From positions 1 through 55,583 of the forward strand of contig JAUXWU010000012.1 of the NCBI GenBank assembly GCA_030680085.1: DNA of 55,583 nucleotides. Reading direction: 5' to 3'. Position 1 is the first letter of the stretch. Each line of letters begins with the position of its first letter. The notes under the pieces are model-generated. The model was not told where the DNA came from. It saw nothing but the letters and a program-made list of their open reading frames with translations, and did not search any database. Source of the DNA: Rhodocyclaceae bacterium (GTDB lineage: Bacteria > Pseudomonadota > Gammaproteobacteria > Burkholderiales > Rhodocyclaceae). Shown piece after piece: positions 7,826 to 53,347 of the stretch. A program made the position numbers and the translations under genes.

Positions 7826-9322
7826 ATGAGCATTATCGATAGCACACTGCGTCGACTGGAAGGCGCGGACGCCGCTGCATCCCGGCCGGGTGCACGGCCG
7901 GGCCCGGAGTACACGCTCGGCAACGATCTGCTGTTCGTCGCCGGGCAGCGGTCGCCACGGCGACCGCTGGCGCTCTGGCTGGGTCTGGCGTTTCTGGCGG
8001 TCGGCGGCGCGGCTTATTTTCTGCTGCCGCGCGGCGGCGCGGCGCCGGAGGAGACCAAGGTGGCATCGGTCACGCTGCCGCCGCCCCCGGTGATCGTTGC
8101 AGCGGTCGAGACGCCCAGGCCGCCCGCAGTGGTCGAGGTCGCACCCAGCGTTCCGCCGCCGCCCCCGGTGGAGACGCCGTCTGTCGTCGCGAAAGCGCCG
8201 CCGGAGCCTGTTACGCCGCCTGCCGTCGCGAAAGCGCCGCCGGCGCCAGTCACGCCACCACCGGCACCCCCGCTGCCTGCGCCGGAACCCAGTCCCCCCT
8301 GGTTGATGGCTGGCTGGGCGGCAATCGATGACGGCAATCCGACCCGGGCCTACGCGCTCTGGGAGGCCGGCTTGAACGCCTTGCCAGGCGACCGCCTGCT
8401 GATCGTTGCACACGCCTATCGGGAACGACGTGTTCTGGATGCCGCCTTCCACCGGCGCACGCCGGAATGGGCGGCGTTCGGTTTCCGCGAAGCGGGTGGC
8501 GGCCAACCGCTGTACCGATTTGCGATTCTGGCGCCGCAGGCCGGGCTGCAGGAAGCGCTTGCCGCCGTTGATGCGCGCTATGGGCGGGCCGATCTGGTAC
8601 GCGCGGCGTATCTCAAGGGTCGCATTGCCGCCGCCACACCCCCGGCCGCGACAACCGTCCTGCCCGCCACGCCGACTCCGGCCGCTGCGCGCCCCGCAGT
8701 AGCCTCTGGGAAAGTCGGCGCTGACAGGGCGGCGGTCAAGGAGAAGCCCGAGGCGCGCGTTGCCGCGGCTGCGGTTACGCCGGAGGCAAAAAAGCTGCCT
8801 GACAGCGCCGTCATGGCGGTGCCCACGCCTGCCCAGGAGGCAAGCCACGAGGCCGCGCGCCGCTGGGAAGGCCGTGCAGATACGATTCGCGAACAGTTGC
8901 GTCTGGGCGCTTTCGGACCTGCGGCGGAAGGGGCGGAAAGCCTGTCGCGCGATTTCCCCGAACGCTGGGAGCCTTGGTACTGGCTTGGCACGGCGGCGCT
9001 GGCGCGCGGCCAACTGGCGGCGGCGGAGCAGGCGCTCGACCATGCCCTGTCGCGCAACGGCAAGGTGGCGCAGATATGGATTCAGCGTGGCGTGGCGGCG
9101 CAAGAGCGCGCCGATCATGCGGCGGCGATCCGTTTTTTCACCAATGCCGAGACACTCGCTCCGCGCATTCCCGAGGCGCACTTGAATCTGGGCTTTTCCC
9201 ATGACGCAATGGGCAGGCAGGCCGAGGCGGAAAAGAGCTTTCACAGATTCCTGAGCGTGACGGAAGGCAATGCGGCCTATGCGGTGCAGCGCAAGCATAT
9301 TCAGGATCGTCTTTCTCGCTAG
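7826..9322 (+). CDS. MshN-like membrane-anchored TPR protein with Pro-rich linker
   Basis: MSIIDSTLRRLE N-terminus, TM helix, Pro-rich region, C-terminal TPR-like repeats. Confidence 0.8.
   Translation: MSIIDSTLRRLEGADAAASRPGARPGPEYTLGNDLLFVAGQRSPRRPLALWLGLAFLAVGGAAYFLLPRGGAAPEETKVASVTLPPPPVIVAAVETPRPPAVVEVAPSVPPPPPVETPSVVAKAPPEPVTPPAVAKAPPAPVTPPPAPPLPAPEPSPPWLMAGWAAIDDGNPTRAYALWEAGLNALPGDRLLIVAHAYRERRVLDAAFHRRTPEWAAFGFREAGGGQPLYRFAILAPQAGLQEALAAVDARYGRADLVRAAYLKGRIAAATPPAATTVLPATPTPAAARPAVASGKVGADRAAVKEKPEARVAAAAVTPEAKKLPDSAVMAVPTPAQEASHEAARRWEGRADTIREQLRLGAFGPAAEGAESLSRDFPERWEPWYWLGTAALARGQLAAAEQALDHALSRNGKVAQIWIQRGVAAQERADHAAAIRFFTNAETLAPRIPEAHLNLGFSHDAMGRQAEAEKSFHRFLSVTEGNAAYAVQRKHIQDRLSR
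8174..8251 (+). repeat. 39-bp in-frame imperfect tandem duplication (TPSVVAKAPPEPV / TPPAVAKAPPAPV)
   Basis: gtcgcgaaagcgccgccgg recurs at 39-bp spacing. Confidence 0.8.
8711..8735 (+). repeat. Dispersed motif copy 1 (3 mismatches), in the TPR gene, read as KVGADRAA
   Basis: aaagtcggcgctgacagggcggcgg. Confidence 0.8.
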
Positions 9323-9779
9323 TCTGGCGCTCCCCGGCCGCAGCCTGGCCGTGGATGACTGCGTGCGGGAAGCGGCGACGCACTATGGCGTCGACGTGCG
9401 TCTGGTGCGGGCCATCCTGCGCGTCGAGGGCGGGCGCGTTGGCCTGCGCAAGGCGAATGCCAACGGCACTTACGATCTCGGACCCATGCAGATCAATACG
9501 CTTTGGCTGCCGCGCTTGCGCGCGCTGGGTGTTGATGAATCACGCCTGGTTTGGGATTACTGCGCCAATGTCGCCGTGGGCGCCTGGATACTGGCGCGGG
9601 AAATGAAGTCAGCCGATGCAGCGCCGAACACGCCTGAATTTTGGCAGTCGGTGGGCCGCTACCATTCGCGCACACCGCGCCACAACGCGCGTTATGCCGT
9701 CAATGTCTGGCATCATGCCATGCAGGCGGAAGCGCTTCGTGCGCAAGGTGCGCCACGGCTTGGCGCCGCCCCTGATTAA
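9279..9779 (+). CDS. Lytic transglycosylase (SLT, IagB/EtgA-like)
   Basis: AILRVEGG (catalytic Glu), NGTYDLGPMQIN, VGRYHS; signal-peptide-like N-terminus; start 9270 or 9279. Confidence 0.9.
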   Translation: MRCSASIFRIVFLASLALPGRSLAVDDCVREAATHYGVDVRLVRAILRVEGGRVGLRKANANGTYDLGPMQINTLWLPRLRALGVDESRLVWDYCANVAVGAWILAREMKSADAAPNTPEFWQSVGRYHSRTPRHNARYAVNVWHHAMQAEALRAQGAPRLGAAPD

Positions 9780-9803
9780 CGTGAAATACGAAATTTAGCG
9801 CCG

Positions 9804-9825
9804 AGTCGGCGCTGGCAGGACGGCG
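9804..9825 (+). repeat. Dispersed motif copy 2, intergenic after the SLT gene
   Basis: agtcggcgctggcaggacggcg; preceded by agcgccga, giving a short inverted repeat. Confidence 0.85.
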
Positions 9826-9826
9826 C

Positions 9827-9858
9827 AAAAAAAAAGCCCCGGCCGAAGGTCGGGGCTT
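9827..9858 (-). terminator. Rho-independent terminator of the phasin gene, possibly bidirectional
   Basis: A9 run next to hairpin aagccccggcc-gaa-ggtcggggctt. Confidence 0.85.
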
Positions 9859-10650: not shown

Positions 10651-10670
10651 AAACTTTCAAGGAGTCATTC

Positions 10671-11874: not shown

Positions 11875-12395
11875 TAGTCCAGATACGGCGCCATGACGCG
11901 CTCCCAGTTGCCCTGGGCGCGCAGGATCATTTCGCAGACTTCGCGGACCGCGCCGGCGCCGGCTGGCGCGCGCGCGACATAGTCGGCGTGTTGCCGAACC
12001 AGCGCGTGAGCATCCGGCACGCAGGCGGCAAAGCCGCAGGCGCGCAGGAGCGGCAGGTCGATCAGATCGTCGCCCATGTAGCCGCACTGGGCGAAATCCA
12101 GATTTTCGCGCGCCAGCAGTTCGGCCATGGCTTGCCGTTTATTCTCGACACCCTGCCGCACCAGTTCGATGCCCAGATTGGCGGCGCGCCGCGTGACGAT
12201 GGGCGAATCGCGGCCGGTGATGATGGCGATTTTTACGCCCGACCTGGCCAGCAGCTTTAGCCCGAGCCCGTCGCGGCTGAAAAAAGCCTTGCAGAAATCT
12301 CCCTCCGGGCCGAAATACAGCCGACCGTCGGTCATCACGCCATCGACGTCGAAGCCCATCAGGCGGATATTTGCTGCTTGCTCCAGATAGTTCAT
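11874..12395 (-). CDS. kdsC: KDO 8-phosphate phosphatase (HAD)
   Basis: FDVDGVMTDG, AIITGR, GDDLID, GAVREVCE; likely start ATG 12395. Confidence 0.93.
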   Translation of the reverse strand: MNYLEQAANIRLMGFDVDGVMTDGRLYFGPEGDFCKAFFSRDGLGLKLLARSGVKIAIITGRDSPIVTRRAANLGIELVRQGVENKRQAMAELLARENLDFAQCGYMGDDLIDLPLLRACGFAACVPDAHALVRQHADYVARAPAGAGAVREVCEMILRAQGNWERVMAPYLD

Positions 12396-13535: not shown

Positions 13536-15500
13536 ATGTCCCTTTACCTGATCCTGCTGCTGCTGGGCGCCGCCGTTCTGGCGGTGGCGGTTTGTCGCAG
13601 TATGAATCTGCCGCCCATCCTTGGCTATCTGCTGGTCGGCGCGCTGGCCGGGCCGCACGCCTTTGCCATGCTGCCCGACATCGAGAGCGCGCACCGGCTG
13701 GCGGAATTCGGCGTGGTGTTTTTGATGTTCACCATCGGCCTGGAATTTTCGCTGCCGCGACTGTTCGCCATGCAGCGCATCGTCTTTGGCCTCGGCCTGG
13801 CGCAGGTGCTGCTGACCTTCGTGGCGGTGGCGGCGGGCGCCCTGCTCTGGGGCGTGCCGTGGCAGGCCAGCGTGGCGCTGGGGGGCGCAATCGCCATGTC
13901 ATCGACGGCGATTCTTTCCAAGCTGCTCGCCGAACGCCGCGAACTCGATGCCGCGCACGGCCGCGAAGTCATGGGCGTGCTGCTGTTCCAGGATCTCGCC
14001 GTGGTGCCGCTGCTGGTGCTGATTCCGGCGCTGACGCAACCGGTCGAGGTGCTGGCCGGCGCGCTGGGCTGGGCGCTGCTGAAGGCTGTCGTCTTGCTGG
14101 CGCTGGTGCTGTTCTTCGGCCAGCGTTTGATGCATGCCTGGTTCGGGCTGGTGGCGCGCCGCAAATCGAGCGAACTGTTCATGCTCAACGTGTTGCTGGT
14201 GACGCTCGGCTTTGCCACCATCACCGAACTGGCCGGCCTGTCGCCGGCGCTCGGCGCCTTTGTCGCGGGCATGCTGATTTCGGAAACCGAATACCGTTAT
14301 CAGGTCGAAGAGGACATCAAGCCCTTCCGCGATGTGCTGCTCGGCCTGTTCTTCATCTCCACCGGCATGCTGCTCGACCCGGCGGCGATCTGGCGCGACC
14401 TGGCCGGCGTGTTGGCGCTTTTGGTGCTGTTGCTGGTTGGCAAGCTGGCGGTGGTCGGCGGCGTCTCGCGGTTGATGGGATCGAGCGCGGGCACGGCGCT
14501 GCGTTCGGCCCTGTGGCTGTGCGCGGCGGGCGAATTCGGTCTCGTGCTGCTGGTGCTCGCCACCAACAACAGCTTGGTCGACCGCGCGCTGGTGCAGCCG
14601 CTGCTGGCGGCGATGGTGCTGTCGATGATGATCGCGCCGCTGCTCGTTGTCTATGCTGACCGCATCGTGCTGCGCCTGGTCGCCGCGGAATGGATGCTGC
14701 GCTCGATGCAGATCACCCGGATCGCCGCGCACACCGTGGCGGCCGAAAAACACGCCATCCTCTGCGGCTATGGCAAGACCGGCCAGCACCTGGCGCGCTT
14801 TCTGGAGGCCGAGCAGATCGGCTTCATGGCGCTCGATCTCGATCCCGACCGGGTGCGCGAGGCGGCCAACGCCGGTGAACCGGTCGCCTGGGGCGATTGC
14901 ACGCGGCGGGAAAATCTGCTGGCGGCGGGCATCGCGCGCGCCCGGGTTTTGATCGTGACCTTCGCCGACATCGAGACGACGCTGCGGCTCGTGCAGCGCG
15001 TGCGCGAGCTGCGTCCTGATCTGCCCATCGTCGCCCGCTCGCGCGAGGAAGACGATGCCGAAAAGCTCTTCGAGGCCGGCGTGGCGGAGGTCGTGCCCGA
15101 GGCGCTCGAATCCTCGGTGATGCTCGCCACCCACGCCCTGGCGCTGGTCGGCGTGCCGATGCACCGCGTCATCCGCCGCCTGCGCGAATTGCGCGAGCAG
15201 CACTATGCGCTGCTGCGTGGCTTCTTCCATGGAGCGACGGATACCGGCGCGCATCTGTCCGATGCCGAGCAAACCCGCCTGCACGCCGTCACCCTAGACA
15301 CTGGCGCCTGGGCGGTCGGTCGCAGCCTGGATGAAATTGCGCTGGCAAAAGTCGGCGCTGGCGTGACGGCGGTAAGAAGGCGGTCGCAGCCCAAAGTGCC
15401 AGTCGCGGGCGAAATACGGTTGCAAGCGTATGACGTGGTGGTCTTGCAGGGTGGGGCGACGGCGGTGGCGGCGGGGGAGGAGCGGTTGTTGCGGGGTTGA
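13536..15500 (+). CDS. CPA2-family Kef-type K+/H+ antiporter with TrkA_N and TrkA_C domains
   Basis: GVVFLMFTIGLEFS, MSSTA, LLFQD, LGAFVAG, CGYGKTG. Confidence 0.92.
   Translation: MSLYLILLLLGAAVLAVAVCRSMNLPPILGYLLVGALAGPHAFAMLPDIESAHRLAEFGVVFLMFTIGLEFSLPRLFAMQRIVFGLGLAQVLLTFVAVAAGALLWGVPWQASVALGGAIAMSSTAILSKLLAERRELDAAHGREVMGVLLFQDLAVVPLLVLIPALTQPVEVLAGALGWALLKAVVLLALVLFFGQRLMHAWFGLVARRKSSELFMLNVLLVTLGFATITELAGLSPALGAFVAGMLISETEYRYQVEEDIKPFRDVLLGLFFISTGMLLDPAAIWRDLAGVLALLVLLLVGKLAVVGGVSRLMGSSAGTALRSALWLCAAGEFGLVLLVLATNNSLVDRALVQPLLAAMVLSMMIAPLLVVYADRIVLRLVAAEWMLRSMQITRIAAHTVAAEKHAILCGYGKTGQHLARFLEAEQIGFMALDLDPDRVREAANAGEPVAWGDCTRRENLLAAGIARARVLIVTFADIETTLRLVQRVRELRPDLPIVARSREEDDAEKLFEAGVAEVVPEALESSVMLATHALALVGVPMHRVIRRLRELREQHYALLRGFFHGATDTGAHLSDAEQTRLHAVTLDTGAWAVGRSLDEIALAKVGAGVTAVRRRSQPKVPVAGEIRLQAYDVVVLQGGATAVAAGEERLLRG
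15347..15372 (+). repeat. Dispersed motif copy 3, in the antiporter gene, read as KVGAGVTA
   Basis: aaaagtcggcgctggcgtgacggcgg. Confidence 0.9.
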
Positions 15501-15622
15501 ATTCCTTCAAAAGCCGCTTTACGTAAACAATGCTGGAAATGGTGTGGCAATGTTTGTGTAACAGAATGAATAAATGATATATTCCTTCAATAATAAAAAA
15601 TGTAGCTACTGAAGGAATTCAA
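15497..15622. promoter_or_regulatory. AT-rich intergenic region bounded by a 13-bp inverted repeat, with an internal third half-site
   Basis: ttgaattccttca 15497-15509 / tgaaggaattcaa 15610-15622; attccttcaa again at 15581-15590. Confidence 0.6.
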
Positions 15623-16614
15623 TGACGCCAATCAGTCACAACCAGCGCTTGGCCTGGGTGAACTCCAGCCAGCTTTGCGAGGCATGGCGGGACGCGACTG
15701 AAAGCTGGCGCGGTTATCGTTACGGGCTGCGTTGGAAGCGGGTTAACGGCGTCGACAAGCTCTTCCGCCAGGCGGATCGACTGGGCAACGGCAGGGTAAT
15801 TGGGCCGCGCGACGAGAGCAGCGAGCAGCTACTGGCGGAGTTTCAGCAAGGCAAGCTGCGCGCCAGGGCGCGCCTGGAGAGCTTGAGGGAGAAACTTGCC
15901 GAGCAGGCGCGCATGAATGTCGCCTTGCGGCTTGCTCGGGCGCCGACATTGGTGGGGCGGGTTTGCCGCGTGCTTGACGAGGCCGGTTTGCGCAAGGATT
16001 TTCTCGTTATCGGCACGCAAGCGATGTTCGCTTACGAAGCGGCGGCCGGCGCGTTTTTTCTCACGGAACTGCTGGCATCTGGCGATATCGACCTGCTTTT
16101 CGATGCGCGGCGGAAAGTAACCCTGGTGGCGCGAAAAGTTGATCGTTCCGGACTGCTGGGGTTGTTGCGCAAGGCGGATCGCTCGTTTACGGTGCCACAC
16201 AAGGGTTTTTTTCGCGCGGTCAATGACGAGGGTTTCATGGTCGACCTGGTCATTCCGCGTCGGCCCATGACGGAGTCGGCCGCGATCAGCTTCGGTGAGG
16301 ACGATCTGGTGGCCGCCGAAGTGCCCGGTCTGCAGTGGCTGATCAATTCGCCGCATATTGCGGAAACCGTGATCGATGCGAAGGGAATGCCTTTCGTCAT
16401 GCGCGTCCCCGACCCGCGCGCCTTCGCCCTGCACAAGGCGTGGCTTTCGCAACAACCGGAGCGCAACCGCATCAAGCAACCGCGTGACCTCGATCAGGCG
16501 CGCGCCGTTGCGGCAGCCCTGCGGGAACACATGCCCCAGTATCCGCTCGACATGAACAAGCTGCGCGCCCTGCATGGCGATGTGCGCCGGGCGGTGGATT
16601 TGCTGGTCGATTAA
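15622..16614 (+). CDS. GSU2403-like nucleotidyltransferase-fold protein
   Basis: VIGTQAMFAYE, SGDIDLLFD, GFMVDL, PDPRAFALHKAWLS, KQPRD. Confidence 0.75.
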   Translation: MTPISHNQRLAWVNSSQLCEAWRDATESWRGYRYGLRWKRVNGVDKLFRQADRLGNGRVIGPRDESSEQLLAEFQQGKLRARARLESLREKLAEQARMNVALRLARAPTLVGRVCRVLDEAGLRKDFLVIGTQAMFAYEAAAGAFFLTELLASGDIDLLFDARRKVTLVARKVDRSGLLGLLRKADRSFTVPHKGFFRAVNDEGFMVDLVIPRRPMTESAAISFGEDDLVAAEVPGLQWLINSPHIAETVIDAKGMPFVMRVPDPRAFALHKAWLSQQPERNRIKQPRDLDQARAVAAALREHMPQYPLDMNKLRALHGDVRRAVDLLVD

Positions 16615-16615
16615 G

Positions 16616-16639
16616 AAAGTCGGCGCTGGCGGGACGGCG
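16616..16639 (+). repeat. Dispersed motif copy 4, 1 bp after the nucleotidyltransferase stop
   Basis: aaagtcggcgctggcgggacggcg. Confidence 0.92.
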
Positions 16640-16700: not shown

Positions 16701-17357
16701 TTATATGTTCTTGCAGAGGACGTAAAGATTGGTGCCAGTATCCGCGTAGTTAGCACCAGGGATGGCTGTGGTAACCGCTGTGGGGGGGGTTGTTTCAAGC
16801 AGGGCCCTTACATTCCCCGTCGTTGCATTCCCGTCATCCAGTTGTGAGTCAAGCGCTTGGGCAACTTTTGCGGGCAAGTTTCCCGTGCAGACAATAGTCC
16901 CGGCAAGCCCAAGTCCGTTGCTTTGAACGCCGACGATACCCCCTGCTGCGTTGAGCGGTTGCGTAGAACCCTCGGCAACCGAGGCCGTACTGCCGGCCAC
17001 AAAACCAGAGAGCCGCAATGCCAGCCAGAATTTTCTGTTTTCGGTTGTGTTGTCCGTTGATTGATAGTCTTGCCCAGCAGTTCCGATGACATTATTGCCA
17101 TCGCCTGACTGTGCGGCTGTCAAAGCGGCCCCTGCCACTGTCCATCTGGTCATCCCGGGGTCGTCGCCGGGCAGTCGCTTGTAACGGTCCTGATACCCAT
17201 AAATGGCAACAGTCACTCCATTCAGGTCGTTCGCCACATTCTTGATCTTCGCCTGAGTGATCAACTCCTGCCCCTTCAACACCCCACCCAGCAGCAGGCC
17301 GATGATGACCAGCACGATGGCGATTTCGACGAGGGTGAAACCGGATTGTTTGTTCAT
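16701..17357 (-). CDS. Probable major pilin of cluster 2 (218 aa prepilin)
   Basis: MNKQSG|FTLVEIAIVLVIIGLLLGGVLKG, LPGD, LDSQLDDG, C-terminal Cys pair; visibly lower GC; ATG 17357 after GGAG. Confidence 0.9.
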   Translation of the reverse strand: MNKQSGFTLVEIAIVLVIIGLLLGGVLKGQELITQAKIKNVANDLNGVTVAIYGYQDRYKRLPGDDPGMTRWTVAGAALTAAQSGDGNNVIGTAGQDYQSTDNTTENRKFWLALRLSGFVAGSTASVAEGSTQPLNAAGGIVGVQSNGLGLAGTIVCTGNLPAKVAQALDSQLDDGNATTGNVRALLETTPPTAVTTAIPGANYADTGTNLYVLCKNI

Positions 17358-17396
17358 TTTAGTACTCCATATAAAGACATATTCATGAAATTGTAG

Positions 17397-17412
17397 AGCA
17401 TTATTCGTGCCA
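17397..17412 (-). promoter_or_regulatory. Sigma54 (-24/-12) promoter of the pilin gene
   Basis: Minus strand TGGCACGAATAATGCT: GG-N10-GC. Confidence 0.8.
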
Positions 17413-17515
17413 CTCATGTTCTACGCGGTTATTCCGCCCGGAAAGCCGGAGCCTTGCTGAATTGGGCGGTCTATTCCGGGTTAATTGTCGATTTGACGGA
17501 TTCGCGCGGGCAGGT

Positions 17516-17574
17516 TGTCGGCAACTGATCATATCGAGCTGTCGAAAAATGGACAGTCTGTCGTGTTTTCATCA
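17516..17574. promoter_or_regulatory. Three candidate enhancer sites for a sigma54 activator
   Basis: TGTCG-N8-(A/T)CA at 17516-17531, 17540-17555 (perfect TGT-N10-ACA) and 17559-17574, about 105-160 bp upstream of the -24 element. Confidence 0.55.
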
Positions 17575-17607
17575 GGACTACGTTTCATCCTAGAATCCAG
17601 GCGAACC

Positions 17608-19317
17608 ATGCCCGTCTTGCCAAAACTCTCGCCAATTGCCCGCCGCCGCTGGATTTTTCTGGCGTTTCTGGCGGCGTTGCATTGGGTGTTTTTGCTCGGG
17701 CCGGCAACCCCGCTCGGCAAGGTGCTGTTTCTTTCCCATATCGGACTGGGCTTGCTGTGGCAGCCTTTTGTGCAGCCCCGGCGGCGTCTGAGACTGGGGG
17801 GGGTGGGCGCCGTGCTGGTTTGCGCTGGGATCTTCGCCTGGTTTCTCAACTGGGCTTTGCTGGCGGTCTGGGTGATGCTGCTGACGGGCGTGGTCGGCGG
17901 CAAGGTGTTTTTGTTTCCTGACCGCTGGGAGCGCCTGTTCAACTTGGCGGCGCTGGGCTATCTGACGACGGCGCTATTGGCGCTGATCATGCCGCAAGCG
18001 CTGCCCGCGGCCAACCTGGCCGAGCCCTTGCTGGCCAATCTGGTGCTTTATCTGGTGCCGGCGGTTTTTGTCGTCATGGCCCTTTTGCCCGCCGAGCAGG
18101 GTGCGCCGGAGCGCGGCGAACTGGTCGATTTCATTTACGGAATCTTCGTTTTTCTGCTGCTGGCGGTGATCGCGCTGGGAAGCCTGAGTTTTACCCTGTT
18201 GTTCAAGACGGGCTATTTCGAGGCGCTGCTGATGACGCTGGCGCTGGTGGCGGGATTGCTGCTGCTCTTGGGCTGGATATGGAATCCACGCGCCGACCTG
18301 GGTGGTTTTGGTGGTCTGGGCAGCGCGGTGGCGCAGCATGTCATGTCGCTGGGCCTGCCGGTCGAGGATTGGCTGGAATCGCTGGCGGCGTTGGCCGCGC
18401 GCGAGGATGACCCGGAGCAGTTTTTGGCGGAAGCCTGTGCCGCGTTGCCGCAACGCATGCCCGGCGTGGTGGGCGGCGCCTGGCAGGTGGAAGGCGCGGC
18501 GCAAGCCTTTGGCGAGCAGCGCGGGCACTGCGCACACTTTCGGCATGGCCGTCTCGCGCTGGGCCTGGTAAGCCGCGGCAAGCCGAGCCCATCGCTGCTC
18601 TGGCATTACGATCTGGCGGCGCGACTCCTGGCCGAATTCCATTTGGGCAAGTGGCGGGCGCGCGAACTGCAGCGGCTTTCCTATGTCGAGGCCATCCATG
18701 AAACGGGCGCCCGGCTGACCCACGACGTCAAGAATCTGTTGCAGTCCCTCGATACGCTGTGTGCCGCCGCGCAGCAGGAAGAGGCGGCGTCGCCCCGCCT
18801 GCTTGGCCTGATGCGGCGTCAATTGCCTGAAGTGTCGTCGCGCTTGCGCCAGACCCTGACCAAACTCGCCGCCCCCGCGGAGCTGGCCAGGCTTGAGCCC
18901 TTGGCGGCGTTGCCCTGGTTTGCCGCGCTCGAAAACCGCTACGCTAACGCGCAGACGGTTTTTTCGGTCGTGGGTGATTTAACGACGCTGTGGGTGCCTG
19001 ATGCCGCGTTGTTTTCGAGCGTGGCGGAAAACCTGCTGCAAAACCTTGCCAACAAGCGCGAGGCCCATCCCGAGGTTAACGCTGAAGTTCGCTTGGGCGA
19101 AATCGCCGGCCAGGTCTGGTTTGAGCTGATGGATAGTGGTGCAGCCCTGCCGACGGCGCTGTCCGCAAAACTCTTCAGCACACCGGTGCCTTCGGAAAGT
19201 GGTCTGGGTGTGGGTTTGTATCAATGCGCGCGGCTTGCCGCGCAGGGCGGCTATCGGCTGGAACTGGCGGAAAATCGCGACGGTTGCGTGCGCTTCCGGC
19301 TCAAGCCTTGCGGCTGA
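17608..19317 (+). CDS. Membrane sensor histidine kinase, PrsK-like
   Basis: Multi-TM N-terminus, H-box THDVKNLL, ENLLQN, DSG, GLGVGL. Confidence 0.85.
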   Translation: MPVLPKLSPIARRRWIFLAFLAALHWVFLLGPATPLGKVLFLSHIGLGLLWQPFVQPRRRLRLGGVGAVLVCAGIFAWFLNWALLAVWVMLLTGVVGGKVFLFPDRWERLFNLAALGYLTTALLALIMPQALPAANLAEPLLANLVLYLVPAVFVVMALLPAEQGAPERGELVDFIYGIFVFLLLAVIALGSLSFTLLFKTGYFEALLMTLALVAGLLLLLGWIWNPRADLGGFGGLGSAVAQHVMSLGLPVEDWLESLAALAAREDDPEQFLAEACAALPQRMPGVVGGAWQVEGAAQAFGEQRGHCAHFRHGRLALGLVSRGKPSPSLLWHYDLAARLLAEFHLGKWRARELQRLSYVEAIHETGARLTHDVKNLLQSLDTLCAAAQQEEAASPRLLGLMRRQLPEVSSRLRQTLTKLAAPAELARLEPLAALPWFAALENRYANAQTVFSVVGDLTTLWVPDAALFSSVAENLLQNLANKREAHPEVNAEVRLGEIAGQVWFELMDSGAALPTALSAKLFSTPVPSESGLGVGLYQCARLAAQGGYRLELAENRDGCVRFRLKPCG

Positions 19318-19450
19318 TCAACTGATACACCGTCATTTCGCCTTTGCCTTTCAGGTAAGTCGTCTGTGGCGCGTGAAAGTCGAAGCGCTCGGCGAGGCGG
19401 CGGTAGGTGGCGGCGGCGCACTGGATCATGCCGGGATAGTTTAAATGCAT
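19301..19450 (-). pseudogene. C-terminal remnant of a class III adenylate/guanylate cyclase
   Basis: Manual translation MHLNYPGMIQCAAATYRRLAERFDFHAPQTTYLKGKGEMTVYQLISRKA*; the rest of the catalytic domain is absent. Confidence 0.75.
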
Positions 19451-19509
19451 GACCGGGAGTGTCTCAGGAAGCAGGGCAGGCGGTCAAGACGGCATCTTGT
19501 CGGACGCTT

Positions 19510-19535
19510 CCGCCGTCCTGCCAGCGCCGACTTTT
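19510..19535 (-). repeat. Dispersed motif copy 5, 14 bp after the AAA ATPase stop
   Basis: ccgccgtcctgccagcgccgactttt. Confidence 0.92.
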
Positions 19536-19549
19536 GGTTCCGGCCGCGC

Positions 19550-20743
19550 TCATGCGCTGTTGGCGTGGGCAAGCGCATCGGGCAGGTGCGGCAGGGATAC
19601 GAGCCAGACGCCCGAGCGCGTTGCATCGAGTTCGCCGCCATGCACCAGCATGCGGACGGCGGATAAGCGCGGGGCGATTTCCGCGTGACGTTTTAGTGCT
19701 GTCAGCATGTCCCCGGCAATGGTCGCCCCGGACTTGATTTCGATGGCGATGGGTGAGCGCGGGTGGTCGATCAGCAAGTCCACTTCCAGTCCGCCGGCAT
19801 CGCGGTAGAAGCTGAGTTGCGGACGTTTGCCGCGGTTGCAATACCATTTGTACACTTCACTGATCGCCAGGTTCTCAAACAGCGGCCCACGGAGCGGGTG
19901 CGCCGCGATTTGCGCCGCGGTTTCGATACCGAGCAGAAAACTCGCCAGGCCGACATCGTGAAAGTAAAGCTTCGGCGAACGAATCAGCCGTTTGCGCAGA
20001 TTGGCATGGCAGGGCGGCAACAAGAAAACAATGAAATTCGCTTCCAGCAATGTCAGCCAGGCGCGCGCCGTGGGTTGGGAAATGCCCGTGTCCGCCGCCA
20101 GATTGTTGAGGTTGAGCAACTGCCCCACCCGTCCGGCACACAGCCGCACGAAACGCTCGAACAGGCTTAAGTCGCGGATTTCCGCGAGTTGGCGCAAATC
20201 GCGTTGCACGAAGGTTTCGAAATAGTCCGCCAGCATTTGTCCCGGCGCGACGGGTGCGATCGCGTCGATTGCGGGGGCATGAATGCGCGGGTAACCGCCG
20301 GCGAAAAGCAGGTGATCCGCCGCGTGCGAAATGCCGGCATTAACCAATTCCTCGATGGACAGCGGCAGCAGCTTGAGCAGCGCGGTGCGCCCGGCCAGCG
20401 ATTGACTGACGCGGCTCATGACCTCCAGTTGCTGGCTACCCGTGAGCAGAAAACGCCCGGGTGTCGGCGCGTCATCGACCAGCACCTGCAGCCAGGAAGA
20501 TAAATCGGGGACGCGCTGGAATTCGTCGAGGATCGCCCCATCCGGGTAGCGCGCCAGAAAACCGCGCGGGTCGGCCGCGAAATGGGCGCGGGTGTCGGGC
20601 GCCTCCAGATTGACATAGGGTTTGGCGGGAAAGGTCTGGCGCAGCAACGTCGTCTTGCCGCTCTGGCGCGGGCCGGTGACGGTGACAACCGGGTACTGGC
20701 GGGCCAGCGCGACGAGCTGGGCGGTGATTTGGCGCGGAATCAT
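19550..20743 (-). CDS. AAA_14 + DUF4143 ATPase
   Basis: GPRQSGKTT, ILDEFQR, LTGS, SLAGR, GGYP, PKLYFHDVGL, EVDLL...IEIKS. Confidence 0.9.
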   Translation of the reverse strand: MIPRQITAQLVALARQYPVVTVTGPRQSGKTTLLRQTFPAKPYVNLEAPDTRAHFAADPRGFLARYPDGAILDEFQRVPDLSSWLQVLVDDAPTPGRFLLTGSQQLEVMSRVSQSLAGRTALLKLLPLSIEELVNAGISHAADHLLFAGGYPRIHAPAIDAIAPVAPGQMLADYFETFVQRDLRQLAEIRDLSLFERFVRLCAGRVGQLLNLNNLAADTGISQPTARAWLTLLEANFIVFLLPPCHANLRKRLIRSPKLYFHDVGLASFLLGIETAAQIAAHPLRGPLFENLAISEVYKWYCNRGKRPQLSFYRDAGGLEVDLLIDHPRSPIAIEIKSGATIAGDMLTALKRHAEIAPRLSAVRMLVHGGELDATRSGVWLVSLPHLPDALAHANSA

Positions 20744-20759
20744 GCCGCCAGCCTAGCGT

Positions 20760-20792
20760 ATGCAGATTCAAAAATCAATCTTGAAATTGCAT
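20760..20792. promoter_or_regulatory. Imperfect palindrome upstream of the AAA_14 gene (possible operator)
   Basis: atgcagattcaa-N9-ttgaaattgcat. Confidence 0.5.
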
Positions 20793-20804
20793 GAACGCGC
20801 CTGA

Positions 20805-20829
20805 CGTCATCTCGCCAGCGCCGGCTTTT
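20805..20829 (-). repeat. Dispersed motif copy 6 (degenerate), after the minor pilin stop
   Basis: cgtcatctcgccagcgccggctttt, 4 mismatches. Confidence 0.65.
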
Positions 20830-20833
20830 TGCT

Positions 20834-21571
20834 TCAGAGCAGGCGACCCGCCGCGATCATGCGGTTGATGAGGATGTTGGTCGGCAGCCAGATGACAATA
20901 TCGTCGAACTCGCCGCCGCCAGTGGTGGCGGTGGCCGGCGTGCGCTGGAAATAATTGGTCGGCACCATGTGGTTGGTGTCTTCATCCGCGTTGGTGGCCG
21001 AGCCATCCGGCAGGGCGGCGCCTGACTCGGTGGTGCCCCAGCGCAGTTTGCCATGCGAGAAAATAACCGCTGCGACGCATGCGCCGGGCGTGGCGCAGGC
21101 CGCTTGCCCGGCCAAATAGACGGCAGTGCCGACATTATCGCGGGTCTGCACCGTGCGGTTGGCAATAGAGGCGAGCGTGATATTGCTGTTGGCATAGGCC
21201 GGCGTGACGCTGTAGCGAATCAGATTGCCCCAGGCATCCCGTTTCTCGATGCCGAGGGCGGCCCAGGGGATGAAACCGCTACAGGCCGTATCGTTGGCAC
21301 AGTTGGCCGGATTTTCCGCGCCGTCGGCTGCCGAGGTAGCCGGGCGGGGCAGGCGACCATTGACGACGGCAAAACCGAGCAGGGCTTCCTGAATGTTGAC
21401 CAGCGTGGCGCGCGTTTCGGCGGTGCGGCGCATGTCGTCTTGCGCGGTCATCGGCAGCAACATACCGCCAATCAGCAGCGCGACAATCACCAGCACCACC
21501 GCCATTTCGACGAGACTGAAGCCGCGCGCAAAAGTCGGCGCTGGCGGGACGGCGGAATTTAGGGGAGCCAT
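20834..21571 (-). CDS. Minor pilin/pseudopilin (cluster 2)
   Basis: ARG|FSLVEMAVVLVIV, EALLGFAVVNGRLPRP, DAWGN, FDDIVIW. Confidence 0.88.
   Translation of the reverse strand: MAPLNSAVPPAPTFARGFSLVEMAVVLVIVALLIGGMLLPMTAQDDMRRTAETRATLVNIQEALLGFAVVNGRLPRPATSAADGAENPANCANDTACSGFIPWAALGIEKRDAWGNLIRYSVTPAYANSNITLASIANRTVQTRDNVGTAVYLAGQAACATPGACVAAVIFSHGKLRWGTTESGAALPDGSATNADEDTNHMVPTNYFQRTPATATTGGGEFDDIVIWLPTNILINRMIAAGRLL
21530..21555 (+). repeat. Dispersed motif copy 7, antisense within the prepilin leader (AVPPAPTF)
   Basis: aaaagtcggcgctggcgggacggcgg. Confidence 0.92.
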
Positions 21572-24102: not shown

Positions 24103-24113
24103 CGCCGACTTTT
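24089..24113 (-). repeat. Dispersed motif copy 8, spanning a stop codon and the next start codon
   Basis: Minus strand taAAAGTCGGCG-ATG-GCGGGACGGCG. Confidence 0.9.
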
Positions 24114-29620: not shown

Positions 29621-29636
29621 TGCAACGCGAGTCGGG

Positions 29637-32833: not shown

Positions 32834-32848
32834 GATCGCGTGGCTGGC

Positions 32849-34216: not shown

Positions 34217-34223
34217 GGCTGCG

Positions 34224-39799: not shown

Positions 39800-41348
<1,549 letters not shown>

Positions 41349-43332: not shown

Positions 43333-43764
43333 TCACCCGTCAATATTGAAGCGGCGAAAGAACTGCTCTGCGCTGAGGATCGGGCACACCAATTGGCCGG
43401 CAAGACTGAGCAGATCCTTGTCGCCGGTCACCAGGGTATCGGCCTTTCCCGCCAGCGCCAGTTCCAGAAAGATTACGTCGAATGCATCCCTACAGGGCGG
43501 CGTCGCCGGCGGCACCGCAGGAATGCGCACGGTCTTGCAGTAGGGAAGGTAGTCCGCCAGCAGTTCTTCCTGCTCATGTGCGGCCAGCTTGAACTTCGGG
43601 TAGGCCAGGGTACGGATCAACTCGGCGGCCGTGGCGCGCGACACCAGTGGCAGCACCCGCTGAGCCTGCCATGCCAGCCGCAGGGGCGCGAGCCGACCAC
43701 CCGCGAACACCAGTGCCGACAACACCAGATTGGTGTCGATCACCACCCGCGGCGGACGCTTCAT
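43333..43764 (-). CDS. PIN-domain (VapC-like) toxin
   Basis: VVIDTN, CRD..D..FLELA, LVTGDKDL; ATGA-coupled to the antitoxin. Confidence 0.9.
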   Translation of the reverse strand: MKRPPRVVIDTNLVLSALVFAGGRLAPLRLAWQAQRVLPLVSRATAAELIRTLAYPKFKLAAHEQEELLADYLPYCKTVRIPAVPPATPPCRDAFDVIFLELALAGKADTLVTGDKDLLSLAGQLVCPILSAEQFFRRFNIDG

Positions 43765-44009
43765 TTCTTGCGCGCAGGCTTGGCGGACGACGCCTGCCGC
43801 GCCCATGCAACAGCATCGGCAACGTCTTGTTCCTGCAGGTCAAGTTCAGCAAGCTTGGCGCGCACCGCAGCGCCGCGCTGGATGCGTACCGGCGTCAGCA
43901 CGATGCGGCCATTGCTGGCTTCGACATCAAAGTATTCCGCCGCACCGAGAGCGGCAGTGATGCTCTTTGGCAGGGTCAGCTGGTTCTTCGAGGTAAGTTT
44001 GGCAAGCAT
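43761..44009 (-). CDS. AbrB/MazE-family antitoxin
   Basis: AKLTSKNQLTLPK, GRIVLTP. Confidence 0.9.
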   Translation of the reverse strand: MLAKLTSKNQLTLPKSITAALGAAEYFDVEASNGRIVLTPVRIQRGAAVRAKLAELDLQEQDVADAVAWARQASSAKPARKK

Positions 44010-44026
44010 GGCGGTGGCTGATCAGG

Positions 44027-44047
44027 AAAGTAAGAAATTCTTACTTT
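44027..44047. promoter_or_regulatory. Perfect palindromic operator upstream of the AbrB-PIN pair
   Basis: aaagtaagaa-a-ttcttacttt. Confidence 0.75.
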
Positions 44048-44111
44048 ACGCCACGCAGGCGGAGTCGTCCAGTGCTCCGGGCAAACAGCTCAACACCCTG
44101 AACGAGTTCCA

Positions 44112-44157
44112 TTGACACTGTAATCGCACTGATTACAATGCATGGCTATTGATTACA
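44112..44157 (+). promoter_or_regulatory. Sigma70 promoter and operator of higBA
   Basis: TTGACA-N16-TACAAT overlapped by tgtaatc-N5-gattaca; a further gattaca at 44151-44157. Confidence 0.8.
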
Positions 44158-44164
44158 CAGCGCC

Positions 44165-44443
44165 ATGATTCTGACATTCAAACACCGGGGTCTTGAACGG
44201 TTCTTCAGGAAGGGCGACCACCGCGGTATTCTGGCCAGAAGCGCGGCCAGGATCGAGCGTTTGCTCGACCGCCTGGATACCGCCGTGAAGCCTGAAGACA
44301 TGAGCATTCCCGGCTACAAGTTCCACCGGTTGACGGGTGCCCGCAAGGACACCTGCGCCGTGACGGTGACCGGAAACTGGCGCATCACCTTTCGCTTCGA
44401 TGGCGCAGACGCAAGCGAAGTTGACTTGGAGGACTATCACTGA
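44165..44443 (+). CDS. higB: HigB (RelE-like) toxin
   Basis: MI.TFKHRGLERFF, H.LTG, VTGNWRITFRF, DLEDYH. Confidence 0.92.
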   Translation: MILTFKHRGLERFFRKGDHRGILARSAARIERLLDRLDTAVKPEDMSIPGYKFHRLTGARKDTCAVTVTGNWRITFRFDGADASEVDLEDYH

Positions 44444-44760
44444 TGAAAACCTTGCGCGACCCGAAACGTCGACCGACGCATCCCGGCGCGATCTTGCGTG
44501 AAGATGTGCTGCCCGCGCTCGCAATGACCCAGACCGAGTTCGCCCAACGCCTCGGCGTGTCGCGGCTCTCGGTGTCCGATCTACTGCACGAGAAGCGCGC
44601 CATGACGCCAGAGATGGCGGCGCGCGTCGGCAAGCTGCTTAATACGACGCCGGAGAGTTGGCTGCGCATGCAGGAAGCCGTCGATCTGTGGACGGTGCAG
44701 CAGACTCCGGAAAAGTTCTCCGGCATCAAGCCAATCGAGGCTGAACTGCTGGCTGCTTAA
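44443..44760 (+). CDS. higA: HigA antitoxin
   Basis: PTHPGAILRED, HTH, TPEMA, ESWLRMQ. Confidence 0.92.
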   Translation: MKTLRDPKRRPTHPGAILREDVLPALAMTQTEFAQRLGVSRLSVSDLLHEKRAMTPEMAARVGKLLNTTPESWLRMQEAVDLWTVQQTPEKFSGIKPIEAELLAA

Positions 44761-44785: not shown

Positions 44786-45871
44786 CTAGCGGCAGCCTGA
44801 AGCGCCGACGATTTCCCGCAGCGCGGCCACCAGTGCCGCGCACTGCTCATCGGTGCCGACGGTAATCCGCAAAAACTGTTCGATGCGCGGCAACTTGAAA
44901 TGTCGCACGATGATGCCGCGCTGCCGTAGTGCCAGCGCCGACTTTTCGGCGTCGTGTCGGGGGTGACGGGCAAACACGAAATTGGCGGCGGAGGGCAGCA
45001 CCTCGAAACCGAGTGCTTCCAGTTCGCGCGTCAGTGTTGTGCGGGTGCGGATCACGGCCTGGCGAGTGTGCTCGAACCATTCCCGATCAAGGATGGCGGC
45101 GGTGGCGCCGACACTGGCCAGACGGTCGAGCGGGTAGGAGTTGAAGCTGTTCTTCACGCGCTGCAAGGCGTCGATCAGGTCGGGATGGCCGATGGCGAAA
45201 CCGACGCGCAGGCCGGCGAGCGAACGCGACTTCGAGAAGGTCTGCACCACCAGTAGATTGGGATAACGATTCACCAGCGCCACGGCCGACTCACCGCCGA
45301 AGTCGATGTAGGCCTCGTCGACGACCGCAACCGAATCCGGGTTGGCCTGCAACAGGACTTCGATGTCGGCCAGCGGCAGCGCGCGGCCGGTCGGCGCGTT
45401 GGGATTGGGGAAGATGATGCCGCCCACGCCACCATTTTGTTGGGCGTAATCGGCCACCCGAATGCCGAAGTTCGCGTCGAGCGGCACGGTTTGATAGGCG
45501 ACGTCGTAGAGTCGGCAATAGACCGGATAGAAGCTGTAGGAGATATCCGGGAACAGGATCGGCTGGTCGTGCTTCAGCAGCGCCAGGAATGCATGGGCCA
45601 GCACCTCGTCCGAGCCGTTGCCGACAAAGACCTGTTGCGGTTCGATGTTGCCGAAGAAGGCAGCGATGGCTTGCCGTAACTGCGTGCTTTCCGGATCGGG
45701 ATAGAGTCTCAGGCTGTCGCCGGTCGCGTTGCGTATGGCTTCAAGCGCTAGCGGACTCGGGCCATAGGGATTCTCGTTGGTGTTGAGCTTGACGAGATTT
45801 GGCAGCTTGGGTTGCTCGCCCGGGACATAGGGCTGCAATGTTCGTGTGGTTGTGCTCCAGAATCGGCTCAT
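44786..45871 (-). CDS. hisC: Histidinol-phosphate aminotransferase, inverted relative to the other his genes
   Basis: [41 protein letters not shown]. Confidence 0.95.
44923..44946 (-). repeat. Dispersed motif copy 12, in hisC (KSALALR frame)
   Basis: gccgtagtgccagcgccgactttt. Confidence 0.85.
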
Positions 45872-50068: not shown

Positions 50069-50084
50069 CGTCGCGCATTTACAT

Positions 50085-50107
50085 GCCGTCCCGCCAGCGC
50101 CGACTTT
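50085..50107 (-). repeat. Dispersed motif copy 13, between tatA and tatB
   Basis: (at)gccgtcccgccagcgccgacttt. Confidence 0.92.
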
Positions 50108-50121
50108 CATAATTTTCCGAC

Positions 50122-51290: not shown

Positions 51291-51294
51291 GGCT

Positions 51295-51395
51295 CGCTAC
51301 GCTCGTTCGTTACGGGGCGCTACGTGGTGATTTTGGCGCGGATTGCGGCTGGCGCCGCGTGCCGCCTTTCCTTGGGGCGGCCCGGCGGAAAGGCT
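51295..51395. repeat. Degenerate second copy of the kdsD-kdsC intergenic element
   Basis: ccttggggcggcccggcgg (51370-51388) is the exact reverse complement of 12400-12418. Confidence 0.55.
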
Positions 51396-51407
51396 ACTTC
51401 GCCGGAA

Positions 51408-52574
51408 CTAGCGCGGCGAGTTGGGTGGCTTGGGCCGCTTGCCGATGGTCACTGTCACTTCCTGCGGCTTGCCCGCGCGGTTCAGGCCGAAGCGCGCGGG
51501 TTCGCCCGGGGGCAGCGCGGCGATCAGGTCGAGCATGACCTGGGCGTCTTTCACCGGCTGGTTGCCGACCGTCAGCAGCACGTCGCCCGGCTTGATGCCG
51601 GCTTTGTCGGCCGGACTGCCGCGCATGACGCCCGCGATCAGGGCGCCCTGGCCCAGCTTGACGCCGAAGGATTCGGCCAGTTCTTGTGTCATGTCCTGCA
51701 CCTCGACGCCGATCCAGCCGCGCGTTACCGAGCCGGTCTTGATGATCTGCTCCATCACACTTTTCGCCAGCGACACCGGAATGGCGAAGCCGATGCCCAT
51801 CGAACCGCCGCTTTGCGAGTAGATGGCGGTGTTGATGCCGACCAGGCGACCGTTGCTGTCGACCAGGGCGCCGCCGGAATTGCCCGGATTGATGGCGGCA
51901 TCGGTCTGGATGAAATTCTCGAAGGTGTTGATGCCCAGATGGGTGCGGCCCAGCGCCGAGACGATCCCCGAGGTGACCGTCTGACCGACGCCGAAAGGAT
52001 TGCCGATGGCGAGCACCACGTCACCGATGCGCAGCGATTCCGCCGCGGCGAGCGTAATTGGCGCGAGCGGCGTGTCGGTGATGATTTTCAGGACGGCCAG
52101 ATCGGATTCCGGGTCGGCGCCGACGATCTTGGCCTTGGTCTTGCGGCCATCGTGAAAGGCGACCTCGATCTCGTCGGCGGATTCGACGACGTGATTATTG
52201 GTCAGCACCAAGCCGTCGGCCGAAACAATCACGCCGCTGCCCAGGCCTGACTGGCGCTGGCTGTCTGGGCCGAAACGGTCGCCGAAAAAGTGACGGAACA
52301 CCGGGTCGTTGATGAAGGGATGCTGCTGTCGCCGCACCTCCTGGCTGGTGAAGATATGCACCACCGCTGGCAGCGCCGCCTGGGCGGCGTCGGCGTAGGT
52401 GACCACCTTGCGCGAATCCCCGGCGGGCGTGGCCTGCTGGACGGCAATGACGGCCGGGCCATTCATTTCATGGGGGCGGGACGGTAGCCAGTCCGGCTTG
52501 AGCGTCTGGACGACAAACAGCGCGGCGACGCTGACCGTCACGGCCTGGGCAAAAATGAGCCACAATCTACGCAT
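51408..52574 (-). CDS. HtrA/DegS/DegQ-family serine protease with one PDZ domain
   Basis: GSGVI, TNNHV, QTDAAINPGNSGG. Confidence 0.95.
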   Translation of the reverse strand: MRRLWLIFAQAVTVSVAALFVVQTLKPDWLPSRPHEMNGPAVIAVQQATPAGDSRKVVTYADAAQAALPAVVHIFTSQEVRRQQHPFINDPVFRHFFGDRFGPDSQRQSGLGSGVIVSADGLVLTNNHVVESADEIEVAFHDGRKTKAKIVGADPESDLAVLKIITDTPLAPITLAAAESLRIGDVVLAIGNPFGVGQTVTSGIVSALGRTHLGINTFENFIQTDAAINPGNSGGALVDSNGRLVGINTAIYSQSGGSMGIGFAIPVSLAKSVMEQIIKTGSVTRGWIGVEVQDMTQELAESFGVKLGQGALIAGVMRGSPADKAGIKPGDVLLTVGNQPVKDAQVMLDLIAALPPGEPARFGLNRAGKPQEVTVTIGKRPKPPNSPR

Positions 52575-52600
52575 AAATGAACTTTGAAAAGGAGAGAAGG

Positions 52601-53347
52601 ATGTTGCGCGACGAATTGGGCGCTTACATGGATGGTTTGCTGGAAACGGCGCGCTTCAAGGATTATTGCCCAAACGGGCTGCAAGTGGAAGGACGCGGCG
52701 AAGTGCGCCGCATCGTCTGCGGCGTTACCGCCAGTCAGGCGTTGATCGATGCGGCGCTGGAGCGTTCAGCCGATGCGATCCTGGTGCATCACGGCTGGTT
52801 CTGGAAGGGCGAGGATGGCCGGGTGACCGGTTTTCGCAAACGCCGCATGCAGGCCTTGCTGGCCGCTGACATCAACCTGTACGCCTATCACCTGCCGCTC
52901 GACGCGCATCCCGAACTGGGCAACAATGCGCAACTGGCGGCGCGTTTTGGCTGGACCGTCGAACGTCGCTTTGGCGAACATGAACTGGGCTGCCTCGCCG
53001 TCCTGCCAGCGCCGACTTTTGCGGGGGCGGTGGCCCGGGCGGCGGAACAGATTCTGGGTCGCGCGCCACTCCTGATCGGAGACGCCCAGCGGCCGGTGAG
53101 TCGCGTTGCCTGGTGCAGCGGTGGTGCACAAGATTGGTTCGAGGCGGCGATCAACGCCGGGGCCGATATGTTCATTTCCGGCGAAGCCGCAGAACAGACG
53201 ACGCATCTGGCGCGCGAATGCGGGGTGCCCTATCTCGCGGCCGGACATCATGCCACCGAGCGCTATGGCGTGATGGCGCTGGGGAAGCACCTGGCCGAGC
53301 GCTTCGGCCTGGTATGCGATTATGTCGAGCTCGACAACCCGGTTTAA
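52601..53347 (+). CDS. Nif3-like dinuclear metal-centre protein (YbgI family)
   Basis: [31 protein letters not shown]. Confidence 0.93.
52996..53020 (-). repeat. Dispersed motif copy 14, antisense in the Nif3-like gene (AVLPAPTF)
   Basis: cgccgtcctgccagcgccgactttt. Confidence 0.92.

Follow-up and report, generated by a model that had tools for sequence, protein, structure and literature searches.

Copies of a 25-bp asymmetric word, RAAAGTCGGCGCTGGCGRGACGGCG, are dispersed over the chromosomes of some Rhodocyclaceae, where a force acting on the DNA turns near-matches into the two-armed consensus chromosome-wide. We analysed this motif starting from the window, a 55,583-nucleotide stretch of a Rhodocyclaceae bacterium (contig JAUXWU010000012.1, assembly GCA_030680085.1) in which a first-pass annotation, made from the letters alone, had proposed a new DNA uptake sequence. 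The motif is real, clade-wide and apparently undescribed: a literature search found no account of it, supplements and subscription journals lying outside the coverage. The best reading, to which we give roughly even odds (about 0.5), is an uptake-type tag of self DNA with a putative reader that would act at the cell surface. Biased recombination of tagged fragments explains this conversion and the small gain from a second copy nearby. The odds stand where they do because uptake at the cell surface is, to our knowledge, the only known cause of the full signature and because comEC, dprA and pilQ are retained.

Definition and abundance of the motif

The genome that holds the window (G000, contig C166) comprises 2.44 Mb in 225 contigs at 62.4% GC; its 2,633 genes come from a hexamer-based caller, those of the window being checked against NCBIfam and Pfam. 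Among its copies the unit is 25 bp long, with random sequence beyond those positions. No 12-mer is commoner in the genome than the core AAGTCGGCGCTG, of which there are 465 exact copies (236 plus, 229 minus). Allowing up to four mismatches, there are 527 copies of the full unit, the hundreds that an uptake sequence had been predicted to reach, and 229 of them are perfect. Mismatch classes 0 to 5 hold 229, 148, 79, 51, 20 and 23 copies; the reversed consensus and three shuffled consensuses have no match at up to five mismatches. Positions 17–18 are the most variable internal positions. The first-pass annotation described the motif as lacking terminal inverted repeats and target duplications. 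The former part stands, with no hairpin in six of six single-strand folds (z-scores −0.28 to +1.33), and the latter has exceptions, a minority of copies carrying a short direct duplication (30282 and 40241 in the window). An Rfam search of the window gave no match and a tRNA search found none.

Within the window, the core is matched at up to one mismatch 15 times against 0.71 expected from shuffles, and none of 100 shuffles reaches 15. All 14 copies first reported by eye are present, within 1–2 bases of where they had been placed, and 11 carry the exact core. They are dispersed as described; the unit is 25 bp rather than about 24 bp, and the copy near 32712 proved to be a left arm only (7 mismatches). 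The count of eight copies inside coding sequences is reasonable: seven lie within called genes, and the eighth (21530) joins them if the prepilin starts at ATG 21571, a start that retains the prepilin leader. The frames KVGAG, KSALAL and AVPPAPTF read as reported. Contigs of the sequencing runs X1 and X2 match the window exactly (they may be its source), and no strain mosaic was seen; no RNA run was among those listed as carrying it. The copies of the window are listed here with their extensions, families A and C being derived insert forms treated below.

8710–8734, plus: motif copy with 3 mismatches, inside the TPR-protein gene 7784–9322, KVGADRA frame
9801–9825, plus: motif copy with 4 mismatches, intergenic
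15347–15371, plus: motif copy with 1 mismatch, inside a gene for a Kef-type antiporter (KVGAGVTA); alignment with the G124 orthologue needs no gap
16615–16639, plus: perfect motif copy, immediately 3′ of the stop codon of gene 15622–16614
19511–19535, minus: motif copy with 1 mismatch, intergenic
20805–20829, minus: motif copy with 3 mismatches, intergenic, after a pilin-like gene
21530–21554, plus: perfect motif copy, antisense within the probable prepilin leader of open reading frame 20834–21571 (AVPPAPTF)
24089–24113, minus: motif copy with 1 mismatch, at the junction of two genes, where it covers part of the first one's stop and the second one's start
30282–30306, plus: perfect motif copy, antisense in TPR gene 29637–30956
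30307–30339, plus: 33-bp family C extension, comprising a right-arm fold-back, a linker and a second right arm (positions 17–25)
32702–32735, minus: left arm (positions 1–16) with lengthened centre, probably family A-like, inside an MshL-type secretin gene (KVGAG)
40241–40265, plus: perfect motif copy in the murA variable loop
40266–40298, plus: 33-bp in-frame family C extension in murA
44922–44946, minus: motif copy with 4 mismatches, in a part of hisC that aligns without gaps; a product of base substitution that imposes the rare codon CTA
50084–50108, minus: motif copy with 1 mismatch, between a tatA-like gene and tatB
52996–53020, minus: motif copy with 1 mismatch, antisense in a Nif3-like gene (AVLPAPTF); ungapped against the orthologue in motif-poor G072

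A weak candidate for a fifteenth copy lies at 33118–33142 (minus strand, five mismatches). Elsewhere in the window, two toxin–antitoxin-type pairs (a PIN domain pair; HigB with a helix-turn-helix protein) sit between hisD and hisC at 43333–44760, with an orthologue in at most 2 of the loci of 29 relatives.

Strands, spacing and replicons

At up to five mismatches the two strands of G000 carry 277 and 273 copies, and balance recurs in four 200-kb blocks of sampled genomes. The 527 copies divide into 318 inside genes (60%, against 88% expected for random 25-mers), 173 intergenic and 36 overlapping a gene end, mostly where a stop codon is formed on the A-rich start of the motif. The two orientations relative to transcription are about equally frequent, at 175:143 within genes and 49:50 in the spacers of co-directional genes, and the word therefore acts as DNA, not RNA. 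By frame, coding copies number 134, 92, 44, 36, 7 and 5.

Spacing in G000 is more even than random (coefficient of variation 0.79, against 1.00 ± 0.05 simulated), bearing out the even spread that had been predicted, and only 21 gaps are shorter than 500 bp where 52 are expected. Blocks of G002 and G052 give coefficients of 0.80–0.93, the simulation having covered G000 only. Repulsion between copies has faded by about 1 kb. A strand-specific rule, considered because G000 neighbours less than 1 kb apart share orientation 44 times and oppose 16 times, is not general, since G002 gives 5:8 and G052 2:2. A 17-kb stretch at the ribosomal-protein operon of G000 holds no copy; density is 0.09–0.12 per kb in windows below 58% GC against 0.22–0.32 above 62%, a relation confounded by ribosomal operons.

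The absence of replichore skew foreseen for an uptake sequence is found in G005. All 113 of its copies (at most one mismatch) lie on the 2.56-Mb chromosome, uniformly (p = 0.91), and 58 of the 113 are on the leading strand (p = 0.85), the replichores being assigned by the GC skew of 13 loci. Its plasmid-like contigs C2 and C3 (149 and 103 kb; 252 kb) have none where 11.1 are expected; the first begins with genes that we read as Rep-, ParA- and ParB-like. Local GC skew in G000 divides copies 129 to 146, again with no polarity of the kind shown by Chi or KOPS (FtsK-orienting polar sequences).

This layout invites comparison with the binding sites of a chromosome-organizing or other genome-wide protein, each kept by direct selection. 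Even spacing, both orientations and a chromosome-only distribution would all follow, and the two-armed consensus fits a protein dimer or a two-domain binder. Yet there is no origin-to-terminus gradient, gaps of 17–18 kb are tolerated, and the motif is missing from G011, G314, G342, G428, G336 and G384, comEC-keeping members of motif-rich genera. Known sites of this type (matS, parS, and the SlmA and Noc sites) are fewer, regional and mostly palindromic. We consider this account unlikely.

Conservation as DNA and origin in place

That conservation lies at the level of DNA, as first proposed, is evident from codons kept against codon usage. The tetrapeptide KVGA occurs 135 times in G000 against 20.6 expected, and 84% of occurrences use the motif codons where codon usage predicts 0.56%. 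APTF, SADF and KSAL behave likewise, the four tetrapeptides being enriched 2.6–9-fold with motif codons.

Orthologue alignment, suggested with the original claim, shows that copies arose by substitution at hisC and at 29 of the 54 coding sites compared, which are ungapped. At the hisC site, 27 same-genus sequences align without a gap, with variants ranging from DAERLAQALRERS to another 13-residue form. The rare leucine codon CTA (1.7% of G000 leucine codons) is present in 17 of 17 motif-bearing sequences against 1 of the 10 others. By this alignment the hisC copy arose through base substitution, and the same origin is seen in a conserved stretch of polA. In murA the motif is kept in 17 of 18 same-genus sequences within a loop of varying length, shorter in most motif-poor genera. 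Three genomes of motif-poor genera, G076 (SSVGAG), G149 and G116 (loci L321, L324, L320 and L347), retain a murA loop that is lengthened where the motif would sit; these loops are possibly decayed copies, which would imply earlier presence followed by loss.

Across the genome, 52 of 300 motif-bearing genes have an orthologue in the DNA sampled from distant genomes, giving the 54 coding sites. Besides the ungapped ones, 13 have gaps of at most two residues, 8 have at least three extra residues in G000 and 4 have other gaps. Control windows are 89% ungapped, and local identity at motif sites is 36% against 64%. The ungapped majority and the low local identity together indicate that the motif prefers variable spots and that a change in length is not required. 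In 114.6 kb of alignment with the closer G021, 18 of 23 sites show no gap; these diverge by 4.0% against the 8.1% background, a value biased downward by selection of sites for a match in either genome, and positions 2–9 and 20–24 are unchanged.

Derived inserts and other repeats

About a tenth of G000 sites carry small hairpin inserts of three families. Family A (14–15 copies, 37 bp) has positions 1–16 as its left part. Family B (13 copies) consists of a left arm, a linker, an inverted right part and a full motif, its first copy spanning positions 1–18. Family C (26 copies under a strict definition, 36 under a looser definition) has a full motif, a fold-back, a linker and the right arm again; its second copy is positions 17–25, which the search pattern required, so that only the drop before 17 is informative. 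In all three families the break in the motif falls within its degenerate centre (positions 16–19), hinting at processing there. Inserts within genes keep the frame (7 of 7 B units are multiples of three and 11 of 11 C extensions are 33 bp), some are polymorphic between G000 and G021, and the families are rare in the other genomes sampled. Partial inverted motif copies occur only in the derived B and C forms. Because every insert runs from left arm to right arm, these forms could spread through conversion of one motif copy by another, or through the action of some enzyme on the centre.

These inserts recall a REP- or MITE-like micro-element (repetitive extragenic palindrome; miniature inverted-repeat transposable element) entering genes and spacers, as do the 25 gapped sites among 54, the direct duplications of hairpin derivatives, polymorphic between G000 and G021, and CGTC on the reverse strand. 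The basic motif nevertheless forms no hairpin, and it appears by substitution in hisC and in the conserved polA stretch. The dialect of G052 keeps a degenerate 8-bp centre that copying would homogenize. A Y1 transposase is found in three of five motif-rich genomes, its four loci holding one motif copy, and is absent from the other two; in G000 it is not flanked by copies. As a source of the simple copies the micro-element is largely refuted and, taken overall, very improbable; it is plausible only for the A, B and C inserts.

Several further repeats were noted. G005 has a tandem version of the derived forms, a 54-bp in-frame palindromic unit in arrays before a motif copy (L424:8433–8565 and 11966–12098, near 828 and 832 kb of C1), also seen in its murA and ispH. 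A CRISPR-like array occupies G000:C53:1–850, with a 28-bp repeat at 60-bp spacing and the repeat word 37 times in the genome. Two palindromic repeats are unrelated to the motif: CCCCTCTCCC...GGGAGAGGGG, of whose 33 hits in G000 several fall within called genes, and CCCCCGAATTCGGGGG, with about 36 hits in 80 kb of G135 (L359–L362), both strands counted.

Taxonomic range and dialects

Among the 122 loci listed with an exact match in the genome collection, 80 belong to records named Rhodocyclaceae, Sulfuritalea, Sulfurisoma and relatives, and the 23-mer is present in 23 of 24 genomes of the window's genus. Of 400 family genomes, 59 hold 81–713 copies of the core shared among dialects, AAAGTC-N12-ACGSY, and none of the remaining 341 holds more than 26; a further motif-rich genome, G117, is recognized by its full pattern (383 copies). 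The restriction to a clade anticipated at first is thus borne out, with 13 of 87 Rhodocyclaceae genera, relatives of Sulfuritalea and Sulfurisoma, motif-rich and no enrichment in 293 genomes from the order's other families (maximum 26 copies). One cultured carrier is Sulfurisoma sediminicola BSN1 (L078/G434), with 145 copies at up to two mismatches.

The existence of dialects was not foreseen. G095 has AAAAGTCGACGCTGG..ACGG, G135 and G052 share rAAAGTCAGTC-N8-ACGGCG, G124 has AAAAGTCAGCCGTGGCGRCACGCC, G117 has GCAAGTCGGCG and G181 also has its own; across them the arms AAAGTC and ACGS are fixed and the centre is changeable. G124, a genome that bears its own dialect, also has on contig C7 (L367–L369) perfect copies of the G000 dialect, several near 868–872 kb, which suggests DNA from another genus.

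Motif-rich genera include members without the motif (G011; G314, G342 and G428; G336, G384 and G423), and no remnants were found in the 20 kb of G011 examined. In motif-poor genomes, scattered copies are often clustered on one contig or region, as would be transferred or misbinned DNA. A murA+hisG+hisD tree of 51 genomes interleaves motif-rich and motif-poor genera; since deep support is weak and several murA rows are misaligned, we read no gain, loss or transfer from it.

Viral contigs hold 102 loci with the exact 23-mer. A 1,356-bp viral contig (L212) carries a tandem array of five motif copies about 316 bp apart, each unit with a GCCTAAC...GTTAGGC-bounded segment that to our eye resembles an integron attC site. 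The viral matches would suit a tag on the donor side, a pac-like or oriT-like start for export of chromosomal DNA by a gene transfer agent, a phage or conjugation, as would the form of the motif: pac and nic sites are typically long and asymmetric with a defined cut. Three findings make such export improbable. The VirB4 family is found in 3 of 27 motif-rich genomes and Terminase_6N in 0 of 5 (other terminase and relaxase families were not tested); five viral records chosen for having a copy hold just 16 copies in 276 kb; and repulsion that fades by about 1 kb is short for headful or conjugative transfer.

Uptake machinery and the search for a reader

The uptake genes expected from the original claim are there in part. 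G000 has comEC, dprA, pilMNOPQ, pilC, pilD, pilT, pilU, two minor-pilin operons and MSHA-like systems; most motif-rich genomes lack ComEA as well as canonical PilB, and none of the pilins follows the motif. Neither does comEC, present in 79 of 80 family genomes with or without the motif; dprA is in 5 of 5 tested. Of the 13 motif-rich genera, 9 yielded no canonical pilB, and many motif-poor sister genera likewise do without it. PF16732 pilins occur in 5 of 5 genomes. A canonical major pilin was found in G052 and not in the fragmented assembly of G000. No candidate for a ComP- or ComN-like receptor emerged from the pilins and secreted basic proteins compared, and a crude list of the latter gave no receptor lead.

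Candidates for the missing parts were set aside. HHH_3 and TIGR00426 matches in the first five genomes are long Tex-like frames or RuvA and do not represent ComEA. GspH/FimT-type pilins occur in 63 of 70 genomes, and the window pilin 20834–21505 in 50 of 80, regardless of the motif. The latter is 67% identical to its counterpart in G052 and 45–53% (gapped matches) in several closer relatives. The window also holds two type IV pilus/type II secretion-like clusters, at 162–9779 and 16701–35741, with a PilB-like ATPase, PilC, an MshL-type secretin, an ExeA-like ATPase and pilins.

Several of these results weigh against a surface uptake tag. ComEA reaches its threshold in 3 of 32 motif-rich and 18 of 53 motif-poor genomes. 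Canonical PilB does so in 9 of 33 motif-rich genomes, from four genera only, and in 0 of 10 from the window's genus, single-contig assemblies included. In G000, pilC has no adjoining pilB, and the other PilB-like ATPase paralogue is internally shortened, to 292 residues (C223:2831–6325, C212:5270–6148). Both genes matter in Legionella, where loss of comEA costs transformation about 100-fold (PMC7811196). From one motif-rich genome to another the PilE/FimU pilins share only about 27–61% identity, most of them have a charge close to neutral, and the two pilin candidates above are indifferent to the motif. The gapped coding sites count on the same side. So does the absence of adjacent inverted pairs, with none among 527 copies and only three pairs closer than 100 bp, all direct.

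The missing machinery lends weight to a tag that works inside the cell, where a DNA-processing protein would bind or nick the motif and favour tagged DNA in recombination, or spare it from degradation, whatever the route of entry and with no need of a surface receptor. Mostly missing ComEA and canonical PilB and the lack of a pilin candidate would then be of no account; three families break the motif at one place, and positions 17–18 vary as the site of a crossover or a nick might. On the strength of these absences (ComEA, PilB, a pilin receptor) and of a centre that seems processed, we treat this as the main rival, a possibility of some substance, if a rather doubtful one. The candidate enzyme was not found, the derived families make up about a tenth of sites and are rare in other sampled genomes, and cutting alone would not build up sites because the cut allele is normally lost in gene conversion.

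A model for a two-armed self tag

Under the preferred reading, a surface uptake tag, a putative sequence-specific reader would contact both arms, about 1.5 helical turns apart. DNA would enter through the PilQ secretin, ComEC and DprA, with some substitute for ComEA and canonical PilB in most genera. Better-matching fragments would win in homologous recombination, so that near-matches drift to consensus where the protein tolerates it; a second copy near an existing one would gain little, giving even spacing; and dialects would arise on a change in the specificity of the reader. A fuller picture, which we offer tentatively, is a third, independently evolved system of self-DNA recognition, with a long two-armed tag, genus-level dialects, a reader that shares no ancestry with ComP or ComN, operation without ComEA or canonical PilB, and opening or cutting at the centre (16–19), later colonized by hairpin inserts.

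Uptake sequences are described from only two families, both of them host-associated (bioRxiv 10.1101/2025.10.24.684340). If the uptake reading is true, free-living groundwater and lake bacteria would have such a sequence, and recognition of self by sequence would not be tied to mucosal life. It would also allow a test of whether these words accumulate by molecular drive alone, for which the clade brings natural controls: several dialects, motif-less members in motif-rich genera and a cultured carrier. A new reader would be a novel DNA-binding protein with a long site, and would offer a way into the genetics of these bacteria. The motif distorts host proteins (the KVGAG and APTF loops), and it shows where transferred DNA came from.

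Comparison with known systems

We do not class the motif with the DNA uptake sequences (DUS) of Neisseriaceae or the uptake signal sequences (USS) of Pasteurellaceae, because the terminator pairing test came out negative, the machinery is mixed and the uptake function is only putative. Like Chi, KOPS and cyanobacterial HIP1, it belongs with genome-wide over-represented words, which in those cases are read by DNA-processing enzymes. Chi and KOPS, however, are 5–8 bp long and replichore-polar where the motif is 25 bp and unpolarized (58 of 113 in G005), and HIP1 is an 8-bp palindrome where the motif is asymmetric.

REP elements and their RAYTs (REP-associated tyrosine transposases) offer a likeness in length (20–40 bp), in hundreds of copies and in some occurrence within genes, and the derived B and C forms are hairpins like the GTAG/CGTC-tagged REPs (PMC3733652). 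The basic motif differs: it forms no hairpin, lies mostly in coding sequence, originates by substitution and does not border Y1 transposase genes. A word search of PMC3733652 gave no hit for Rhodocyc-, Azoarcus or Dechloromonas, and only GTAG-1 for Thauera.

DUS and their dialects are read by the minor pilin ComP (PMC3630211). The motif resembles them in its lineage-specific dialects round an invariant core, its betaproteobacterial host and the permissive positions of coding copies. DUS, by contrast, are 10–12 bp long with a CTG core and often form inverted terminator pairs (PMC3630211), whereas what stays invariant here is a pair of arms set apart from each other, and the pilins of the PF16732 family are divergent, with a charge close to neutral. 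About half of DUS and USS lie in predicted terminators (bioRxiv 10.1101/2025.10.24.684340). The likeness of GCCGTC to the Neisseria DUS, remarked in the first-pass annotation, carries little weight: that end is CGCCGT plus a variable base across dialects, and the DUS core is CTG (PMC3630211).

The USS combines a 9-bp core, AAGTGCGGT, with two T-rich flanking tracts (PMC3458573), and its predicted receptor is ComN/PpdA (PMC12616744). The motif differs in its 25 bp and second, strongly conserved GC-rich arm, in stronger peptide enrichment (2.6–9-fold against about 2-fold; PMC2817400), and in lacking adjacent inverted pairs, a tracking FimT/GspH-type pilin and, mostly, ComEA; it is also known from sequence alone. 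In other respects the two are alike. Both are asymmetric, present in hundreds of copies in both orientations, spaced more evenly than random and about 60–65% within open reading frames (65% for Haemophilus influenzae USS), with a frame bias and peptide enrichment in each (PMC2817400). Both are extended sites of several parts, and the motif, too, starts with AAAGT.

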